Shown: positions 4,089 to 58,636 of the stretch, in pieces
How the letters are laid out: each line of letters opens with the position of its first letter
Numbering within the stretch: position 1 is the first letter of the stretch
Assembly: GCA_964016885.1 (NCBI GenBank)
Contig: OZ024752.1
Coordinates: 1,736,001-1,800,000, forward strand
Source: Eledone cirrhosa
Lineage: Eukaryota
Direction of reading: 5' to 3'
Length of the DNA: 64,000 bases
Made by a program: the position numbers and the translations under genes
The notes under the pieces: generated by a model
Seen by the model: only the letters and a program-made list of their open reading frames with translations
Database searches by the model: none
What the model was told of the DNA's origin: nothing

Positions 4089-4261
4089 TATAATCCTGTA
4101 ATTAAATGAGCTCAAAGGAAAGAGTTTTCCTGGGTACTTTAAAATACAATATATAGAGGGGAAAGTAAAGTAAATCACACACTTCTGTGTATTTCCCCTC
4201 TATATATTGTATTTTAAAGTGCCCAGGAAAACTCTTTCCTTTGAGCTCATTTAATTACAGG

Positions 4262-4267
<6 letters not shown>
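4089..4267. repeat. Fold-back inverted repeat (76-bp arms), probable non-autonomous PLE-type insertion
   Basis: 4089-4164 is the reverse complement of 4192-4267 with one mismatch; the right arm runs straight into (TA)n. Confidence 0.85.
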
Positions 4268-4655: not shown

Positions 4656-4669
4656 AATTATATATATAT

Positions 4670-4858
4670 AATTGTTTCTACTTTTGGCACAAGGCCAGCA
4701 ATCATCCAGTGTATTACTGGTACTTTATTTTATCGACCCCATAAGGATGAAAGGCAAAGTTAACCTCGGCGTGATTTGAACTCAGAATGGGAAGGGCCGT
4801 AACTCCATGTGTCAAAGCATGGCGTCCGACCCTCTACCGATACTGCCAATCTTCCGCC
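4670..4858 (-). mobile_element. tRNA-derived SINE, family 1 (GCCTTTCATCC...TCGATAAAATA central domain)
   Basis: Reverse complement of the family seen at 4875 and 29716: A-box-like TGGCAGTATCGG, B box GAGTTCAAAT, central GCCTTTCATCCTT, 3' GGCCTTGTGCC...AGTAGAAACAAT. Confidence 0.85.
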
Positions 4859-4874
4859 CTTATATATATATAAT

Positions 4875-5064
4875 GGCGATGGATTAGCAGTATCGGTAGC
4901 GGGTCGGACGCCATGCTTTGCAGCAAAGACTTACGGCTCTTTATGATCTGAGTTCAAATCCTGCCGAGGTTAACTTTGCCTTTCATCCTTACGGGGTAGA
5001 TAAAATAAATTACTAGTAATGTACTGGGTAATTGCTGGCCTTGTGCTTCAAGTAGAAACAATTA
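4875..5064 (+). mobile_element. tRNA-derived SINE, family 1
   Basis: B box GAGTTCAAATCC, GCCTTTCATCCTTACGGGG, 3' end AGTAGAAACAATTA; collinear with 29716-29903. Confidence 0.85.
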
Positions 5065-5089
5065 TATATATATATTTACACAAAGCGTG

Positions 5090-11055: not shown

Positions 11056-14000
11056 GGTGTCATCTTCAGAGTGAGCCATAAATTCAACATCGTCATCGTA
11101 CAGGAGTTCTCTAATTAATATTTGAAACACTTTGGATTTGAAATTGAACTTTCTTAGGTCAGATATCCTTCCTGTAGGTCTAACTTGAAATAGAACACCC
11201 TTTGCACAGTCCTGAAATTCATGAGTCAGCATCACAGCAAGATAATATTGAAAACAATGTGGGAGCCGGGATATCCGTTCAACACAACCTGAGCATTTAT
11301 ATTTCTGTGCAGTCGGACGAACAAACCAATAAACGTTGGTGGGCACCCTATTTTCCTAATATTTTCCACAGTGCACACCTCTGTTCATTGTATCAAAGGC
11401 CTTTGTCAGATCAACAAAAATCTAATACAGAGGAACCCGTAGCTCAATACATTTCTCATGAATCTGCCTTGCAGAGAAGATTATATCAATCGTCCCTCTG
11501 CCAGATCTATAGCCACTTTGTGATTCAAGGATTACTGTAGGAAAAATGTCCTCCATCAACCTGTTCAACAATAATATTGCAAGAACTTCGCAACAGAGTG
11601 ATGCCACGGTAGTGATCACAGATTCCTTCATCCCCTTTACCTTTAAACAATGTCACCAAGATACCATCTATCCAATCTTGTGGTATAGGAGCTCCAGCCC
11701 AGCACTCTGTGATGAGATTGAGTATTTTTTGAGTTATGCTCTTATTAACAACCTTTTACAATTCCACAGGGATTCCATCTGGTCCAGATGCCTTACACGT
11801 GTTTAATTGGTTGATGGCTATTTTAAACTCCTTATAACCCGGTAATCGATCCATTTTCAGATTTACAACACATTGGGGGGTGTCATCTAGCACATCATGA
11901 TCAACTAATGATGGATGGATTATCAAATATATGAGTAAAATGTTCTTGCCAACGCTTAAGGATTTTCTCCGATTCCTTGATGATATCAATGTCGTCTTTC
12001 GACCTTATAGGAACAATAGATGAATTATTGGACAATATACTGGCACAAAAGACTACCAAACAGTTTTGAATCCTTTGCACAATAAGCAACTTGAATTTCT
12101 TCAGAGATATTCAACCATCATTTATTTTTAAGCCTTCTCAGCTAGCATTGTAAGGTGGCTTTATATTCTTTATATATCTTTTTAATAGCAGTTAAATTCG
12201 TAGGGCACTCCCCCAGAAGAATTTCACGGAGAGCATGTTTTTTCTTTAATAGTTGGCTGGTAACCCGATAATATCATCAAACCAGTCTTTATGTTGCTTT
12301 TTCACAATGAATCCAAGTTATCCTGCTTCTGCTGTATACCTGGATCCCTGAAGTTTTTCCATGTTCCATCAAAATCAGTATTATTCAAATGTTTATTCAA
12401 AGCCCCAGGTACCTCTTGCTGTTTTAACCATCAATACGCTTCAGAGTTTTGATCCCACACATACGAGATTATTTCCAAATACGTAACTTCAATTTCCCCT
12501 AAACCAACATAGGGTATATGTTGCATTCTACACTACGGATGACGCACACCTTACAGACATCATTTAGGTCGCATCCCTGGGTTACTATGAAATCTAGCAT
12601 GTGGCCATATGTTGACCTGAGGCTTATCCAGGTAATGTTATGCTTCTTCTTTTGGCGGAATAATGTATTGCAAATAGCTAGGTTGAATTCTGAACAGCGC
12701 TGAAGCAGCTTCAAGCCAATGTCAATCATCTTACCGATGCCGTAATGGCCTAGTGCGTCCCATGTCTCGTGATCTCTACCAACTCGGGCATTAAAATCAC
12801 CAAGAAGGATCACTTTTTCTTCGACTGGAGTAGATGCAATTGTAGCACGAAGGGATTCAGAGAATGCCATAATACTTTCTTCACTGGCCTGAGAGTTGGA
12901 CATAAACCGGCAGAAAGGTTGCACATCACCGACATGCAACTTCATTATATGGTCACTGATTCTAAATGCTCTGCTAGTGTTTCTCGCACTGCAAAACCGA
13001 CACCACCATCTCACCGTTCTCCTTTTGGTTTCCCTGTCCAGAAAAGTATGAAACCTGATGATGCTTCAGTCAGCTGATCACACCCTGACAGACGTGTTTC
13101 TGACAAGTATACAATATCTATATTTAATCTTGGAGTTTCTTTGTTATCAGTGCGGTTCTTCTTTCTGGTCAGTTCTATGAGTTTTGGTCCAGGAGGGTTC
13201 TGACATTCCAGAAGCAAATATGTAGTTTGATTCGATTCTTCATTAATGATTTACTTTGTAATTCACTTTTTCTTTTCCTGCTTCAATGAACTGCCGATAG
13301 CCGCAGTAAACTACCCAACGTTGATGTGACAGGCAATTTTCTATGCCCCTTTTCTAGCAGCTGATAGTGCTCTTCCTGATAGGACTGCTCAGGCACAGGA
13401 GTCTCCACCAGAGTTACAGGAAGATATAACAACGATGATCTGATAAGACCCCTGCCGCCTATGTGTAGATTTGCAACTATATGCTTCCAACTGGTCAGGT
13501 GTGCACGCATCACCACTCCTCCATCGCCTTAGGTCTTTCAGCTGTAAAAATGACAGGAGAAAGATAAAAAAAGAGACATCTGTACATTATTGGATTATAG
13601 TGGCAAACACTTGTACTATACGAAATATGAAGTATGAAATGAAATTCCATCTGTTGATATTTATTGAAATACTTAATATAGTCGCTTAGAAGTCGCATAA
13701 ATATGTTACTATGATGTAAATGTTTGAATTGTTGTGTTAGTTGTCTACCATAACGAGTTATACTGTAATTATAATTACTCTGTACTTGAGAGATTGAGTG
13801 GAATATAAGATTTTGAGTTCAAATTTTAGAATCCATGACGTGTCCGAAACCTTGCAAACATTGAATTTGTTTTTCATTTGAAATTGCTATCACCTGTACA
13901 AGATAAGCAGTAGGCAGCCAGCAGGTAATGAAAGGAGTTAATGCAAATGAGTACTGCGACTAATAAACGTACATTTCTTCTTCTTCTTCTCCTTCTTCTG

Positions 14001-18876: not shown

Positions 18877-19110
18877 ATTTCTGGCAATATTATAACAATA
18901 TGACCCTCCCCAAATATAACAATATTTGTTTCTTCACACTATTTCATATAAAAAACCTTGCAAAACAAATTCATCGCCGTCATGGCACCAGCCTATGCCA
19001 AGCTGAAAGGTTATTCAAAGACACTGTTTTCTGTTATCACCAAACAGTGAGTGTGTTCTGTTATTATTTCTGATAATATTATAACAATATGACCATCCCC
19101 GAGTATAACT
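18877..19110 (+). mobile_element. Tandem terminal fragments of the PLE family ending at 50762 (one with tail, one tail-less)
   Basis: ATGACCCTCCCCAAATATAACAATAT...CTTGCAAAACAAATTCA (18877-18973) matches 50682-50755; 19066-19110 repeats the tail-less part. Confidence 0.65.
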
Positions 19111-19147
19111 ATATATATAACTATATATATAACTATATATATATATA

Positions 19148-19202
<55 letters not shown>

Positions 19203-20499: not shown

Positions 20500-20502
20500 A
20501 TT

Positions 20503-22229: not shown

Positions 22230-24210
<1,981 letters not shown>

Positions 24211-29903: not shown

Positions 29904-31423
29904 AGTATATCAATACCCATACAGTGGTGATTATAATAATTAAGAAAGGATAGAAAATACATCAAAATAAAACAAATGATTTCCCGGGAGTGTTTTAAAG
30001 TTTCTCTGAAGAATTGAACAACTATGTATTGTGGCAGAATAATTCTTCAAATTCCTCAAATTGCGTTTGATACATAATTAAATATTGGCAATTGTTGAGA
30101 ATATATCAAAGAGTATACTTAATTTTCTACTGAAATTTAATTAAACACTTGGGGATATAATGCATCCATAGCTTTTGTAACAATATTTTAAACATTCAGA
30201 TTTTAAACACCCATGTGTAAACATTACTAAACAAGAATTTTATGGAATAAATCAATAAAAAAAAATAACATCGAAACGCTTAATTAAGTACATGAAATAT
30301 GACTTCTCACATAAACACGCAAGCACGCTCCAGCATAAAGTCAGTTATGGACATATATATATGTACCCACCCGTGCGACCACGTGTGTGTGTGTGTACAT
30401 ATACACAGGATTTGTTCAAAGTTTGAGTTTTTCAGTACTCTTAACTATTGTATGAATATATTAATGTATACATGTACGTCTGTGTCTGTGCGTTTGTCAG
30501 TAAGTAAATATTTTAATCCATACAATAAACCAAATATAAATAAAAGGCAGTGAGCGAGAGTAACATGCAACAATTTAACTTGTGAAAATATAATAATATA
30601 ATATATATGCTAAAAGACAGAGGTCTAGTTTACAGCCGTGGCAAAAGTCGACATCGTAAAGATGAACAGCATGAAAATATACACAAAAAAAGAAAAAGGA
30701 GCTGCTCTGCATTAAATATTGAAGATACCTGAGAAAATTCCACGCAGAAGCGATGGAAGACCTTCAAGAATACACAATTACCAGATGTTCTGCATAAAAA
30801 ATAGCTGCTGAATATGTGAAGGCTTGGAAAGAACAGTTAGAGATATTCACTAAAACAAATTACAGAGTTTTGATTCAGAGGTGGGGATAATAGTAACTAG
30901 GTCGATTCTCAGTGTGTGTGAGTGTGGTTGGATACCTCTTACTAAATGAAACCAAGTATCATGTGTTATTGAAAGAATTATCATAAGAAATATTTGTGGG
31001 GTTTGATGACATTATAAACTTGAAGATATTTCCGCATTATGAAATAATAATGTTAACACAAATACAATAATCATATCTTAGAATTAACAACCGTCTATGC
31101 TGTTTCCTTTATGTATGGGGCGAATATAACCTAAGGGCTCGATGATATTCTCGAATAGTACTAGGAAAGTACATTTGTCTTTTTTTGTAATACCCCTTAA
31201 CTTATGATAAAACATCCCACGAACAAATTCAGAAAATATCCAAATATACATACGAATATGGATATAGATATGTCGGCTGATTATATAAACGAAGAAATTA
31301 AAATAGATGTTTTGCAATAATTGTAAAAGTCTATATTCACACAAATACATACTCAAAAGTCGGTACTTATATATATGAACAACATGCAGTAAATGGCACA
31401 CAAAGAATATATATATATACACT

Positions 31424-31774
31424 TCGTTTTAGAATTTGTTTTGCAAGATTTCTTATCTGAAACCGTGTGTTGCAACACATATTGTTATACTTTGGGAGGG
31501 TCATGCTGCCAATAGAAAGACGCGCACCTGGTGTTTTCGCTTCAATTTATCACAAATTTCCGGTTGGCTGGTTGGATAACCAGATGGTTATCAATATTGT
31601 CAAAGCTCTTTCGCCACAGGAGGTTCCATAATGCCTGACGCAAGAGCCTTGACTATATATAAACAATCATACGATTATCGAACCAAACAACCAGAGTTAT
31701 AATAAAATGAATTGAAAATCTTCGGGTGCGTGTGTGTTTATTGGCAACATAACCCTCCCAAAGTATAACAATAT
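31424..31774. mobile_element. Fold-back hairpin + tail element made from the 3' end of the PLE family at 49750-50762
   Basis: Diverged arms 31479-31617 / 31636-31774, tail 31424-31478. Both arms and the tail are collinear with 50528-50762. Confidence 0.8.
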
Positions 31775-31783
31775 ATATATATT

Positions 31784-31837
<54 letters not shown>

Positions 31838-31902
31838 TATATATATATATATATATTGGTATATATAAAATATATATATTGGTATATATATATATATATA
31901 TT

Positions 31903-31977
<75 letters not shown>

Positions 31978-32005
31978 TGTATACATATATATATGTATAT
32001 ATATG

Positions 32006-32038
<33 letters not shown>

Positions 32039-32078
32039 GTATATGTATATATATATGTATATATATATATGTATATGT

Positions 32079-32131
<53 letters not shown>

Positions 32132-32148
32132 GTATATATATATATATA
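31775..32148. repeat. Interrupted (TA)n array
   Basis: TTTG/TTGG then TG interruptions. Confidence 0.95.
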
Positions 32149-32352
32149 GTATTAGTTATACTATTTATGGTTATGTAAATACAAAGCCTTAAGCAGTTGT
32201 AAGTATTTTACACACACCCTAAATAGTGGTAGGCAGTAATGTATTACTACCTTATTACCAGTAAGTTAAGTAGCTCAATGTAAAAACATCAGATGATTTA
32301 CAGAGCAGTTATATGAAATATAAGAATCAAAGAACTGTTCAAAACATTATTG

Positions 32353-32399
32353 TGCTTACAGCTGTTTCCTCCAAACCGAGGTTTGGATTCTTCGGAGCA
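32353..32399 (-). ncRNA. Type I HHR in the 3' pLTR
   Basis: Revcomp of 34607-34653. Confidence 0.75.
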
Positions 32400-33815
32400 A
32401 TTTATTAATGCATGGACAGTTATATGACCTCCTTTTCAGCCGAGAGACATACCAAATACATATTCAAACATTGATACATATTCAAACATTGTGGGTCAAC
32501 ATTCATTACAGAATTTAGAGTGGCAGTACACACTTCGAGATTACATTTATATTAATAGGTACAATCAAAAATCAAAGATATAGGTTAAAGTACAACATGA
32601 AGATAAGTGGTTATATAGTGCAAATGTTATATGTGTGGCACGCATGTGCGTCTTGTTTATATAGTGTGGCAGAGAGATATGTGTGGTAGAGGCACTTAGG
32701 TAGGTAAATAAGAGTGTTAGGTTGGTAGGTCTGGTGGCAAAGTCTTTATATGATTGATATAGTCTGTGTGTGGAGAAATATTATAAGCATTAAAGATAGT
32801 GCAAGCATTAAAAGTGTTATAAGTATTGGAGATGCACAGCGCAGGGATGTCAAGTAATTCATGTACTTCGGCATTTTCATGGTCAAGGGAGTGTATATTT
32901 CGATTATATGCCTTTCACATAATCCACGACAATCCAGTAAGAGATCGTAGTCTGGTGTTCTTTAGTTCGATACAGGGGGATGTTACGTTTCGAGAAACGC
33001 CATTGAATACCGGAAGTGTGTGTGTGGCTAAGGGGAGTTAATGCATGCGGGGAGGTAACTCTGGGGTTTCTATATCTAGCCATTAAAATGTGTCCCAATA
33101 TAGACCCTAAATTCTATGGTGAGGTGCACCTTCCAAGAGAGACTTTTAAAGCATAAAGTGTACTAACTATAGAGTAGTTTATATTATTATTAAGGTGGAT
33201 TAACCCATCTTAAGGTGCTACAAATGGAAATTATAGATGATGAGCGAGGATTCTAAAATGATCTCTGTGGTTGTAGTCTGCTCATATGACCAGGCGCGGT
33301 GATTGCAGGATTGCTTCAGGACCCAATGATCTCTGGTAAGATCTGGGTCATCGCTTGCTACATTGGATGTCGAAAGATAATCGTCCCCAGGCAGGCCAAG
33401 GTCAATCCGCAGTCCTCGCGACCCCTCTCTGACCGTCAGATCATCCATATACGTACAACCCGCACGGCAGTTGCATTGCATTCACTCACTGCGCTCAGCA
33501 GCCCGGTCCTACTGGTCAACAGCGCTACTCGATTAAATCATTTTACATCTGTCTAAGGAAGGTGTTTCCTCTGCCCAACAACATCCAACCGATCAATTCA
33601 TGCTCAAAATTACCCTTAGAGCGGTGTAGTGCCATCAAGTGGGTGGATGTTGTCACACCTGCCGTAGAGGTATAAATGGGTATTTTCCCTGCGAAGGGTT
33701 CCAGAGGGATGCCGTTGTTTGTGTTATAATGGATCAGCTAGTGTTGGGTATGTAGTATAGGGTGTGTTTCTGGTGTTTGATGCTAGATGTGGTGTTAGGT
33801 TCCAGTCCGACATTG

Positions 33816-34540
33816 CTATATATAGGGCTTAAAGTTTTGGAAGGAATGTCTGAGGCGGTGCTGGCAAGTTGCAAACACCTCAGATTTTTTGTTAAGTAGG
33901 TTACGGTTGGAGAAGATAATATTGTGTGTCTCTAGAATACAGAGGTTACAGAATTTATTAGGTGGTTTGTACGAGGTCGCGCTGCCTATCACTTCCCATT
34001 TGAGTGTGTATGGTTTATTTTTAGATTTTAGATAGTGTATGTAGCTAGAAAGTGAGGTGGAGTTGGCTAGGCTGTGCTTTTTGAACGAGTGGATGTGCGA
34101 GTTATATCTGATTTTGAAGCAGTTAGAAGTGGAGCCTACATAGGTTTCTGAAGAGTTATTAGTCGTGACTGTGCATGAGTATATGACATCCTTGGTTAGG
34201 CATTTTTTATCTAAAGGGCAGGTTCTATTAGCTCTACAGTTACAATTATTCTGTGCGTTAGTCCGCTGGTTATAATGCAATGCGGAAGTCTGTGTGGTGG
34301 ATATAGGATTTTGGGTGTTCGGGTTGGCAACCCTGGTGTTATTACTTATACTAGTGTTATTTCTATTGTTACTGCCGTTGCTATTGTTGCTTGCTACAGT
34401 GGTATTTAGAGGGTTTGCATCCTGTTGTGATTTTGTTTGTTGGAAGTAAGAACTAATTTTACTATTATTGCTGCTAGCTATGTGGTATGCTAAGTTAGGC
34501 GTCGTAGAGTATGAGATTTTAATGGTGTTTTTGTTTAAGA
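33816..34540 (-). pseudogene. PLE ORF C-terminal fragment: linker, Cys-rich motif, GIY-YIG endonuclease (RT lost)
   Basis: NTIKISYS..PN...CNCR...CPLDKKC...VIY...YVGST...FK.RY..H..SF...STSLS.YI..LK...W...CNLC..E...LLNKKSE...CQH; frame uninterrupted. The N-terminal MHGQ..LLFS repeats in the ORF track come from the inverted pLTR. Confidence 0.9.
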
Positions 34541-34606
34541 GGCTGAAAAGGAGGCTGAAAAGGAGGCTGAAAAGGAGGTCATATAACTGTCCATGCATTA
34601 ATAAAT

Positions 34607-34653
34607 TGCTCCGAAGAATCCAAACCTCGGTTTGGAGGAAACAGCTGTAAGCA
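34607..34653 (+). ncRNA. Type I HHR in the inverted pLTR (U4C core variant)
   Basis: TGCT-CCGAAGA-ATCCAAAC(CTCG)GTTTGGAG-GAAA-CAGCTG-TA-AGCA: helix I TGCT/AGCA, palindromic helix III ACAGCTGT. Confidence 0.75.
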
Positions 34654-34711
34654 CAATAATGTTTTGAACAGTTCTTTGATTCTTATATTTCATATATTTC
34701 ATATATTTCAT

Positions 34712-34743
<32 letters not shown>

Positions 34744-34772
34744 ATGTATATATATATATATATATATATATA

Positions 34773-34803
<31 letters not shown>

Positions 34804-34828
34804 ATGTATATATATATATATATATATA

Positions 34829-34917
<89 letters not shown>

Positions 34918-34918
<1 letters not shown>

Positions 34919-35141
34919 TATTAAGTGTAATGAATTCTTTTACAATGGAATTAGCTCGAAGAAAGAAATATTTCTGAGCCGTGTATAAACAAATATATAT
35001 GATGAAACACAAATACCAACACATCTGTATTTATATTGCAAAAGAAAATTTAGCAAGTATACTTCATTCTGGCTAAATTTTCTGTTGCAATATAAATACA
35101 GATGTGTTGGTATTTGTGTTTCATTATATATATTTGTTTAT
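34918..35141. mobile_element. Fold-back hairpin + tail element
   Basis: Arms 34985-35054 / 35072-35141 (near-perfect), tail 34918-34984, (TA)n flanks. Confidence 0.85.
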
Positions 35142-37430
<2,289 letters not shown>

Positions 37431-57507: not shown

Positions 57508-58636
57508 CATCATCATCACCGTTTTACGTCCGTTCTTCCACGCTAGCATGGGTTAGACGGGTTGTCCTGTTGTGTGCAGTGTCTGGTCGGCTGACCATGC
57601 CTTGCTCATACAGGAACTGATCTGGCTTGATTTCTACAGCTGGATGCCCTTCCTAACACCAACCTCAGTTACAGTGAGTGCTGGGTGCTTTTTCGTGGCG
57701 CCTACACGTCCACTTTACAGTGTGGGCTGGGTGCTTTTTTGCCGCGGCACCTCCACGACCACCTTGCGGTGGGGTGTGTGGGGGGATATTGTTTATATGC
57801 TTCAGCATGTAACCATGGGAGGTCGGGTACTCTGTATTACTGCGTGACGCCAGAAGTCACGGTCGTGTGTCATTGTCTTTGAGAGGTGTAGTTGGGTAAG
57901 GTCGGCTTTTATCACCTCATCCCAGGCCATCTTGGGTCTCCCCACTCCGCGGTTTCCATCAACTTCTAGTGCTCTGCACCTTTTTATGCAGCTGTCATCC
58001 TTCATACGCATCACATGTCCATACCAGCGCAACCGCCTCTCCTGCACACAGCATTTGATTCCTCTTATGCTCAGTCTCTCTCTCAATTCATTTATGCTTT
58101 GTCGTTCACGTATATTACTGTTACACATCCATCGGAGCATGCAGGCTTCGTTTCTCTCTAATCTACGTAGCTCTTCCACCTTCAGCGCCCAGGTCTCACT
58201 ACCATGCAACATCGCTGTTCGGATACACGCATCATACAGTCTGCCTTTCATTCTGAGGGAGAAGCATTTTGCAGCTAGCAGTGGTAGTAGTTCCCTGAAC
58301 TTCTTCCATCCCGTTCTTACCCTAGTTATTGTACTTTCTGAACACCCACCTCCGTTGCTAATTCGGTCACCTAGGTAGCAGAAGCTGTCTACTGTTTCTA
58401 CAGGGCCCTTCCAGAGATTGGTGGTAATTGTTTCCTGTGGCTGTTTGCTGCTTGCTGTTTCAGCACAGCTGCTGCATGTGAATCCTACATTCTTAATTAA
58501 GCTTCCTGAGATCCCGCTACATCTCTTGTGTACCCATTGTTTGCATTTGGGGCAGAGAATGGAGTTCTTACCTACACCTTTCCTACATACTGAGCAAGGC
58601 CATTTCCCTGAGGGGATCTGGGTTCTGTTTTCTCGT
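57506..58636 (-). mobile_element. 5'-truncated RTE-like LINE with a Cys-rich (PHD-like) insert in RT and (GAT)n tail
   Basis: Minus [24 protein letters not shown]...FTCSSC, SFCYLGD, KGRLYDACIRTAMLHGSETW, RLRWYGHVMRM; 3' UTR has GGATGCCCTTCCTAAC on plus and ends in CATCATCATC. Confidence 0.88.

Follow-up and report, generated by a model that had tools for sequence, protein, structure and literature searches.

Perfect short tandem arrays at either end of the inverted arm of a Hydra-clade Penelope-like element in Eledone cirrhosa: a junction scar likely formed by slip-back copying

How did two short sequences, each present once near the 3' end of a Penelope-like element (PLE), come to stand in tandem at the two ends of its inverted arm? 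The locus lies in the window, by which we mean the whole stretch of 64,000 nucleotides of Eledone cirrhosa DNA that was analyzed here and to which all positions refer. A sequence-only reading had proposed that the reverse transcriptase (RT) of the element, as a relative of telomerase RT, repeatedly re-anneals to a short template window and recopies it, both at initiation and at a strand switch. We find a real and clean junction scar in an otherwise ordinary insertion of a Hydra-clade PLE, and the scar was likely formed by slip-back copying when the element inserted.

Judged by its sequence, the element is a 5'-truncated Hydra-clade PLE inserted within (TA)n, and (TA)n arrays border it on both sides (Table 1). 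The 3' boundary of the main copy was placed where the (TA)n run begins. The ORF remnant comprises, in this order, the end of the RT region, an Asn-rich linker, a CxCX5C motif (C99-x-C101-x5-C107) and a GIY-YIG-type endonuclease with CxxC (C197-xx-C200) and CxH (C225-x-H227) motifs, and its endonuclease core contains one cysteine only. Hydra-clade PLEs are described as having a C-terminal GIY-YIG-type endonuclease with a CxCX5C linker, CxxC and CxH (Craig et al. 2021, PMC8557442), and we assign the element to this clade because all three motifs are present and the CCHH cysteine pair is absent, which is the signature given in that paper. A Neptune label for the element was dropped against the same definition.

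Table 1. Features of the insertion, ordered by position in the window
Feature	Positions	Strand	Remarks
(TA)n target array, 3' side of main copy	31771..32148		
Main copy, 5'-truncated Hydra-clade PLE (ORF remnant, long 3' region, hammerhead motif, tail)	32149..34540	-	
Tail, 161 nt, present in main copy only	32149..32309	-	missing from inverted arm
Single-copy counterpart of inverted arm	32310..32441	-	contains each repeated window once
Hammerhead-ribozyme-like core and stem II, then short palindrome	32365..32395	-	pattern and stem scan, fold
Internal perfect 18-mer duplication	32456..32491		15 nt from arm boundary, off any junction
ORF remnant, 240 aa	33816..34538	-	protein alignment, motifs
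12-mer, three copies at head-to-head junction	34541..34576	+	two extra copies
Inverted arm	34565..34696	+	reverse complement of 32310-32441, 132/132
Hammerhead-like core within inverted arm	34611..34641	+	
9-mer, four copies at outer end of arm	34685..34720	+	three extra copies, leads into (TA)n
(TA)n target array past arm	34719..34918		own repeated interruptions

With the Hydra-clade PLEs described in PMC8557442 the element further shares a hammerhead motif, a (TA)n target, the 5' truncation, an adjacent inverted 5'-truncated copy and a tail at one end. It differs from them in the length of the tail, 161 nt as compared with 30-40 bp, and in the Asn-rich linker. Between ISYS and CxCX5C (34245-34505, - strand) this linker spans about 87 residues, 21 of them Asn by hand count, as against roughly 26-37 residues in relatives, and it recalls the Asn-rich inserts in rotifer Penelope ORFs (PMC3846280). 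A protein search with the remnant retrieved 1817 representatives at E 1e-10. In alignments, the remnant is 39-45% identical to the C-terminal part of proteins that combine RT and endonuclease, and its best protein relatives are just 34-50% identical; the first 90 query residues are misaligned in alignment A1. Related proteins carry RWK (P0004-P0005) or RWR (P0006) and DKT (P0004-P0006) in the part that is truncated in the window copy. A Pfam search gave no family for the remnant.

Minimal hammerheads have been described in PLE repeats (PMC4209133), and a hammerhead core pattern with stem II, in a variant form, is found in both arms as a predicted ribozyme; Rfam returned no match for the element up to E 1. 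The distal end of the tail lies 216 nt beyond this core, and the segment 32149-32290 has a predicted structure (z -2.57, equalled by 3 of 200 shuffles). Parts of the element occur in 16 of the 22 public sequencing runs listed, 6 of which contain half or more of it, and no RNA run is among the matches listed. No DNA-level match to the element was found in 79 metagenome loci, and 133 candidate stretches in viral_contigs included no relative.

The 12-mer occurs in direct succession on the + strand (starts 34541, 34553 and 34565) and once on the - strand (32430-32441), while the tandem 9-mers start at 34685, 34694, 34703 and 34712, with one copy in the 3' copy at 32313-32321 and five further singletons at unrelated sites in the window. 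A sequence search confirmed the positions: three 12-mers and four 9-mers, each single in the 3' pLTR, had been reported exactly. Counted in register, the arrays extend over 34539-34578 (3.3 copies) and 34684-34724 (4.6 copies), the first reaching 2 nt into the body of the main copy, and they lie exactly where the inverted arm begins and where it ends. Their copy numbers are those of the assembly, accepted on trust. No exact three-copy tandem with a unit of 7-20 nt arose in 300 Markov resamples of the element. The window contains 48 such tandems, only four of which begin outside masked microsatellite: the two arrays described here, and two inside a degenerate AT array at 60.7-60.9 kb. Outside microsatellite arrays, the 12-mer and 9-mer arrays are the sole such tandems of at least three copies in about 46 kb. 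Duplications occur outside junctions too, as the internal 18-mer duplication illustrates.

Both the tail on one side and the inverted 5'-truncated copy belong to the usual build of a PLE (PMC8557442), so that only the two arrays are unusual. The identity of the arms at every position and the perfection of both arrays indicate that the insertion is young, with little opportunity for change since then.

The windows that were reiterated have a property in common. In single copy, each has terminal redundancy, 4 nt for the 9-mer and 2 nt for the 12-mer, i.e. an A-B-A' layout that allows the end of a product to slide back. Redundancy of at least 4 nt at period 9 is found at 0.9% of element positions, and of at least 2 nt at period 12 at 7.8%. 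A stem bounding the template window gained no clear support: upstream of the 12-mer window, the 18-mer duplication can fold into a hairpin, but a weak one, with z -1.56 alone and -0.13 when the 12-mer window is included.

The outer end of the arm lies 55 nt beyond the hammerhead core. Among 55 related hammerhead-to-(TA)n ends, counted by hand, 27 fall 40-73 nt and 24 fall 100-145 nt past the core, and the position of the arm end within the proximal cluster makes it a likely start of reverse transcription. Purified PLE protein uses two internal start sites in vitro, with both target strands cut and extended (PMC11167929), in agreement with the two clusters. For the 9-mer array, this is in line with initiation as proposed in the sequence-only reading; the start-site match does not extend to the 12-mer. 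The 9-mer unit is moreover fixed, with no extra TA, whereas other reiterated (TA)n edges vary in their TA run (10, 10 and 16 at 19105; 11, 14, 13 and 12 at 58630), which modestly favors an RNA template.

Related junctions were compared at 79 metagenome loci, 13 genome-contig loci and 100 regions around hammerhead or ORF matches in one genome bin, G001; these are related loci, not copies of the element's own family. G001 is filed as a bacterium and holds many PLE-rich, animal-like contigs with nested (TA)n insertions (L080-L092 and later loci), which are likely host DNA in the bin. The tallies exclude L093-L126, which overlap with other loci, and 12 of 17 later loci. Most metagenome comparators look like short-read assemblies, in which such repeats may be collapsed. 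At (TA)n junctions, none of 59 related loci has at least three exact copies and five have two, mostly T-runs, 4-mers or apparently family-encoded repeats. At inverted-arm junctions, at least three exact copies are present in one of 31 pairs (50 inner ends), a pair count made partly by hand and retaining two cases that are probably not PLE arms (L092 2674 and L151 2681).

The one match, L085:2972-2995, is a 7-mer repeated 3.4 times exactly at the inverted-arm junction, with 2-nt redundancy, and present once in a longer sibling within L081. Its family has a Neptune-type endonuclease, as labeled from motifs, and L085 represents a comparable junction in another animal's PLE from an unrelated assembly. 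With 0.0012-0.0023 expected per position, a single match has P 0.06-0.11, and this match was noticed before the test was defined; 11 pairs scored under a rule fixed beforehand have no inner end out of 20 with at least three copies. Two-copy tandems show no clear enrichment: they are seen at 6 of 50 inner ends, compared with about 0.04 per position, and several of these are not junction products. Over the 31 inverted pairs and 59 (TA)n junctions, an enrichment of exact tandems at junctions is not established. Post hoc, we noted a 55-nt unit present twice with 2 mismatches at the L211 junction, and at the L241 junction a 25-nt patchwork filler derived from the arm end, out of register, which its siblings lack. 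Templated reiteration at PLE head-to-head junctions recurs, in 3 of 31 pairs, but is occasional, and the idea that it forms a regular step of PLE insertion does not survive these counts. A 24-mer duplication (L081:8529-8578) lies off the junction, inside a PLE copy, where it interrupts the match to the inverted sibling.

On balance, we propose that the arrays arose at insertion, when a DNA end slipped back over 2-4 matching bases and the stretch was then recopied. Both target strands would be cut, each priming reverse transcription, and the main copy would begin at the distal start (216 nt past the ribozyme core) and the arm at the proximal one (55 nt). The arm primer, a TA run, would anneal to TATA in the RNA; on this still short hybrid, the RT would copy 9 nt up to a second TATA, slide back, and do so three times. 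Synthesis of the main cDNA would end within the ORF, 2.4 kb from its start, and that of the arm cDNA would reach 132 nt. Growing inward from the second target strand, the arm would meet the main cDNA head-to-head, and microhomology of 2-3 nt would serve to join the two ends, the 12-nt window being copied in two abortive rounds. Two cDNAs from opposite target strands, joined in this way, account for the layout, so that the strand switch postulated earlier is unnecessary. For the 9-mer array, the RT is the more probable source, slippage by it having slightly better than even chances. The 12-mer array was very probably formed at insertion, while its enzyme is a coin-toss, the chances being about evenly split between the RT and polymerase-theta-type joining by the host.

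The host could also have made both arrays, with polymerase-theta-type end joining producing the 12-mer array, later slippage at the (TA)n edge producing the 9-mer array, and no reiteration by the RT; we regard this as rather unlikely. The patchwork at L241 resembles the templated insertions of fly polymerase theta (PMC2895639), so that the 12-mer array, too, may be a product of the host. Such insertions, like the window element, involve short microhomology and repeated rounds of synthesis from junction-adjacent sequence, and the 12-mer array, L085 and L241 all present filler copied from the flank with short microhomology. However, polymerase-theta insertions are typically patchwork and imperfect, whereas the arrays of the window element, the 12-mer array included, are perfect tandems in register. 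As for the 9-mer, the window has kilobase (TA)n arrays rich in repeated interruptions, and edges that do not belong to PLEs are also reiterated into (TA)n, namely those of a fold-back element (35131-35165) and of an element with a PHD-bearing ORF (58638). That none of the 59 PLE/(TA)n junctions from other sources is reiterated likewise points to the host. The constancy of the 9-mer unit, which has gained no TA as the other edges have, argues against such an origin, and the youth of the insertion against slippage at a later time. The proposal that the RT re-anneals to and recopies a short window accordingly stands in part: the arrays are absent from the single 3' copy, lie at the arm ends and fit the terminal redundancies, but sequence alone cannot separate the RT from host end joining (12-mer) or (TA)n-edge slippage (9-mer).

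Nearest to the earlier notion of a strand switch is an account in which one polymerase does everything: it would finish the main cDNA, leave the RNA for a site 2.1 kb back in its own cDNA, stutter on restarting (12-mer), copy outward and stutter a second time on joining the TA target (9-mer). Slippage is expected where the hybrid is short, e.g. at a restart (PMC3415434), the body end shares 2 nt of the repeat register, and self-priming has been proposed for inverted junctions of PLEs (PMC3846280), which in rotifers show microhomology joining and are palindromic. The junction studied here, however, has neither palindrome nor fold-back, its mirrored site is 2.1 kb away, and the position of the arm's outer end at the proximal start distance would be left to chance, all of which makes a single polymerase improbable. 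Self-priming by fold-back was ruled out, as the arm mirrors a site 2.1 kb off. An error of sequencing or assembly beside the AT repeat, in one array or in both, is in our view also very improbable. Such an error is possible for the 9-mer, which adjoins a (TA)n array, and the interruptions of the long arrays are strand-biased (G at least five times C in 8 of 12), which could be technical. It is unlikely for the 12-mer array, which is of mixed sequence, perfect and about 110 nt from any microsatellite, and a like junction is present in an unrelated assembly.

Slippage of this kind has precedents outside PLEs. Eel UnaL2 slips at priming in a manner called "reminiscent of telomerase" (PMC1636434), and in L1-driven Alu insertions the tail expands by slippage at priming (PMC3415434, where the I factor and R2 are cited). 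In both, a short window is recopied at the start of target-primed reverse transcription, as proposed here for the 9-mer array, and the process is explicitly likened to telomerase. The UnaL2 and L1/Alu templates have repeats or poly(A) at their ends from the outset, whereas the stretch recopied here is single-copy and internal, and unlike the LINE cases the window element has a second array at the head-to-head junction. Because the same slippage is already published for LINEs (PMC1636434, PMC3415434), kinship with telomerase, which the earlier reading had invoked, is not needed as its cause.

Telomerase and bacterial DRT10, whose RTs fall in the same clade as those of PLEs, need an A-B-A' template and a boundary stem (PMC12632851). 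The realignable A-B-A' layout is common to these systems and the windows described here. They have, however, a dedicated template and a boundary stem and are processive every time, in contrast to the 2-3 extra copies at few junctions seen here. Reiteration in the window element resembles telomerase realignment, yet it is an occasional stutter and not a programmed repeat-addition step, as is evident from the two different windows, the small number of extra copies and of junctions, and the lack of a clear boundary stem. Among PLEs, the PAc Poseidon element is similar in that both strands of an AT-rich target are cut and extended and two internal starts give rise to a tail (PMC11167929). The start used by its purified protein had no homology with the target, unlike the TA-TATA priming proposed here, and the main text reports no reiteration ("slip" occurs 0 times). 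In PMC8557442, which calls the formation of PLE inverted ends unresolved, no mention of tandem reiteration at arm ends was found, and the main text uses neither "slippage" nor "microhomolog". In a retrozyme preprint (10.64898/2026.07.22.740005), nothing on junctions was found. The literature searches, which covered the main texts of open papers, turned up no account of tandemly repeated copies at PLE junctions.

Several other repeats in the window end in or consist of (TA)n. A second PLE-like family terminates at 19066-19199, where it meets (TA)n; its final bases recur there three more times, in variable register (near 19110). A fold-back element of about 150 bp with arms of roughly 55 bp (34988-35165) has its right end reiterated into a 2.3-kb (TA)n array. 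A LINE-like RT fragment (22729-23903), presumably CR1/L2-like, has a 10-mer twice directly before (TA)n, a type of 3' repeat attributed to slippage in LINEs. In the long (TA)n arrays between 20776 and 63994, interruptions on the + strand are strongly G-biased in 8 of 12, whatever the neighboring element, and in the array at 48331-49382 they number 77 G to 0 C; the bias may reflect a polarity of biological origin or have a technical cause. Positions 4089-4267 and 4656-5077, with related pieces at 20502, 29707, 41336 and 44942, contain palindromic elements together with a dispersed family whose members are paired head-to-head about short TA runs. Other PLE pieces lie at 49382-50762, 31410-31770 and 18877-18975, with a GIY-YIG ORF at 49750-50283 and hammerhead-like cores at 50509-50537 (+) and 49616-49640 (-); they include related repeat and ORF-start segments, one of which is a diverged inverted pair. 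Further retroelement pieces, all on the - strand, are a PHD-finger ORF (57802-58635), an endonuclease fragment (12499-13065) and an RT fragment (42682-43851).

Reiterated junctions are modestly new for PLEs, slippage itself being known from other retrotransposons. The basis so far is one striking copy and three comparators, and slippage is common to several RT families. A more far-reaching version, which we consider doubtful, is that PLE RTs retain telomerase-type realignment on single-copy A-B-A' windows and employ it where the second cDNA begins as well as where it ends, and that stuttering on TA-rich windows helps to build the interrupted (TA)n arrays that are targeted. In the literature found, repeat addition is known in telomerase and bacterial DRT10 and not shown for PLE RTs; if PLE RTs do add repeats, all three branches, telomerase, DRT10 and PLE, would have this activity. 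The copy described here offers two exact windows that can be tested in the existing in vitro system. If realignment by the RT is borne out, it would have been shown in the closest eukaryotic relatives of telomerase; if not, the scars would be the work of host repair.
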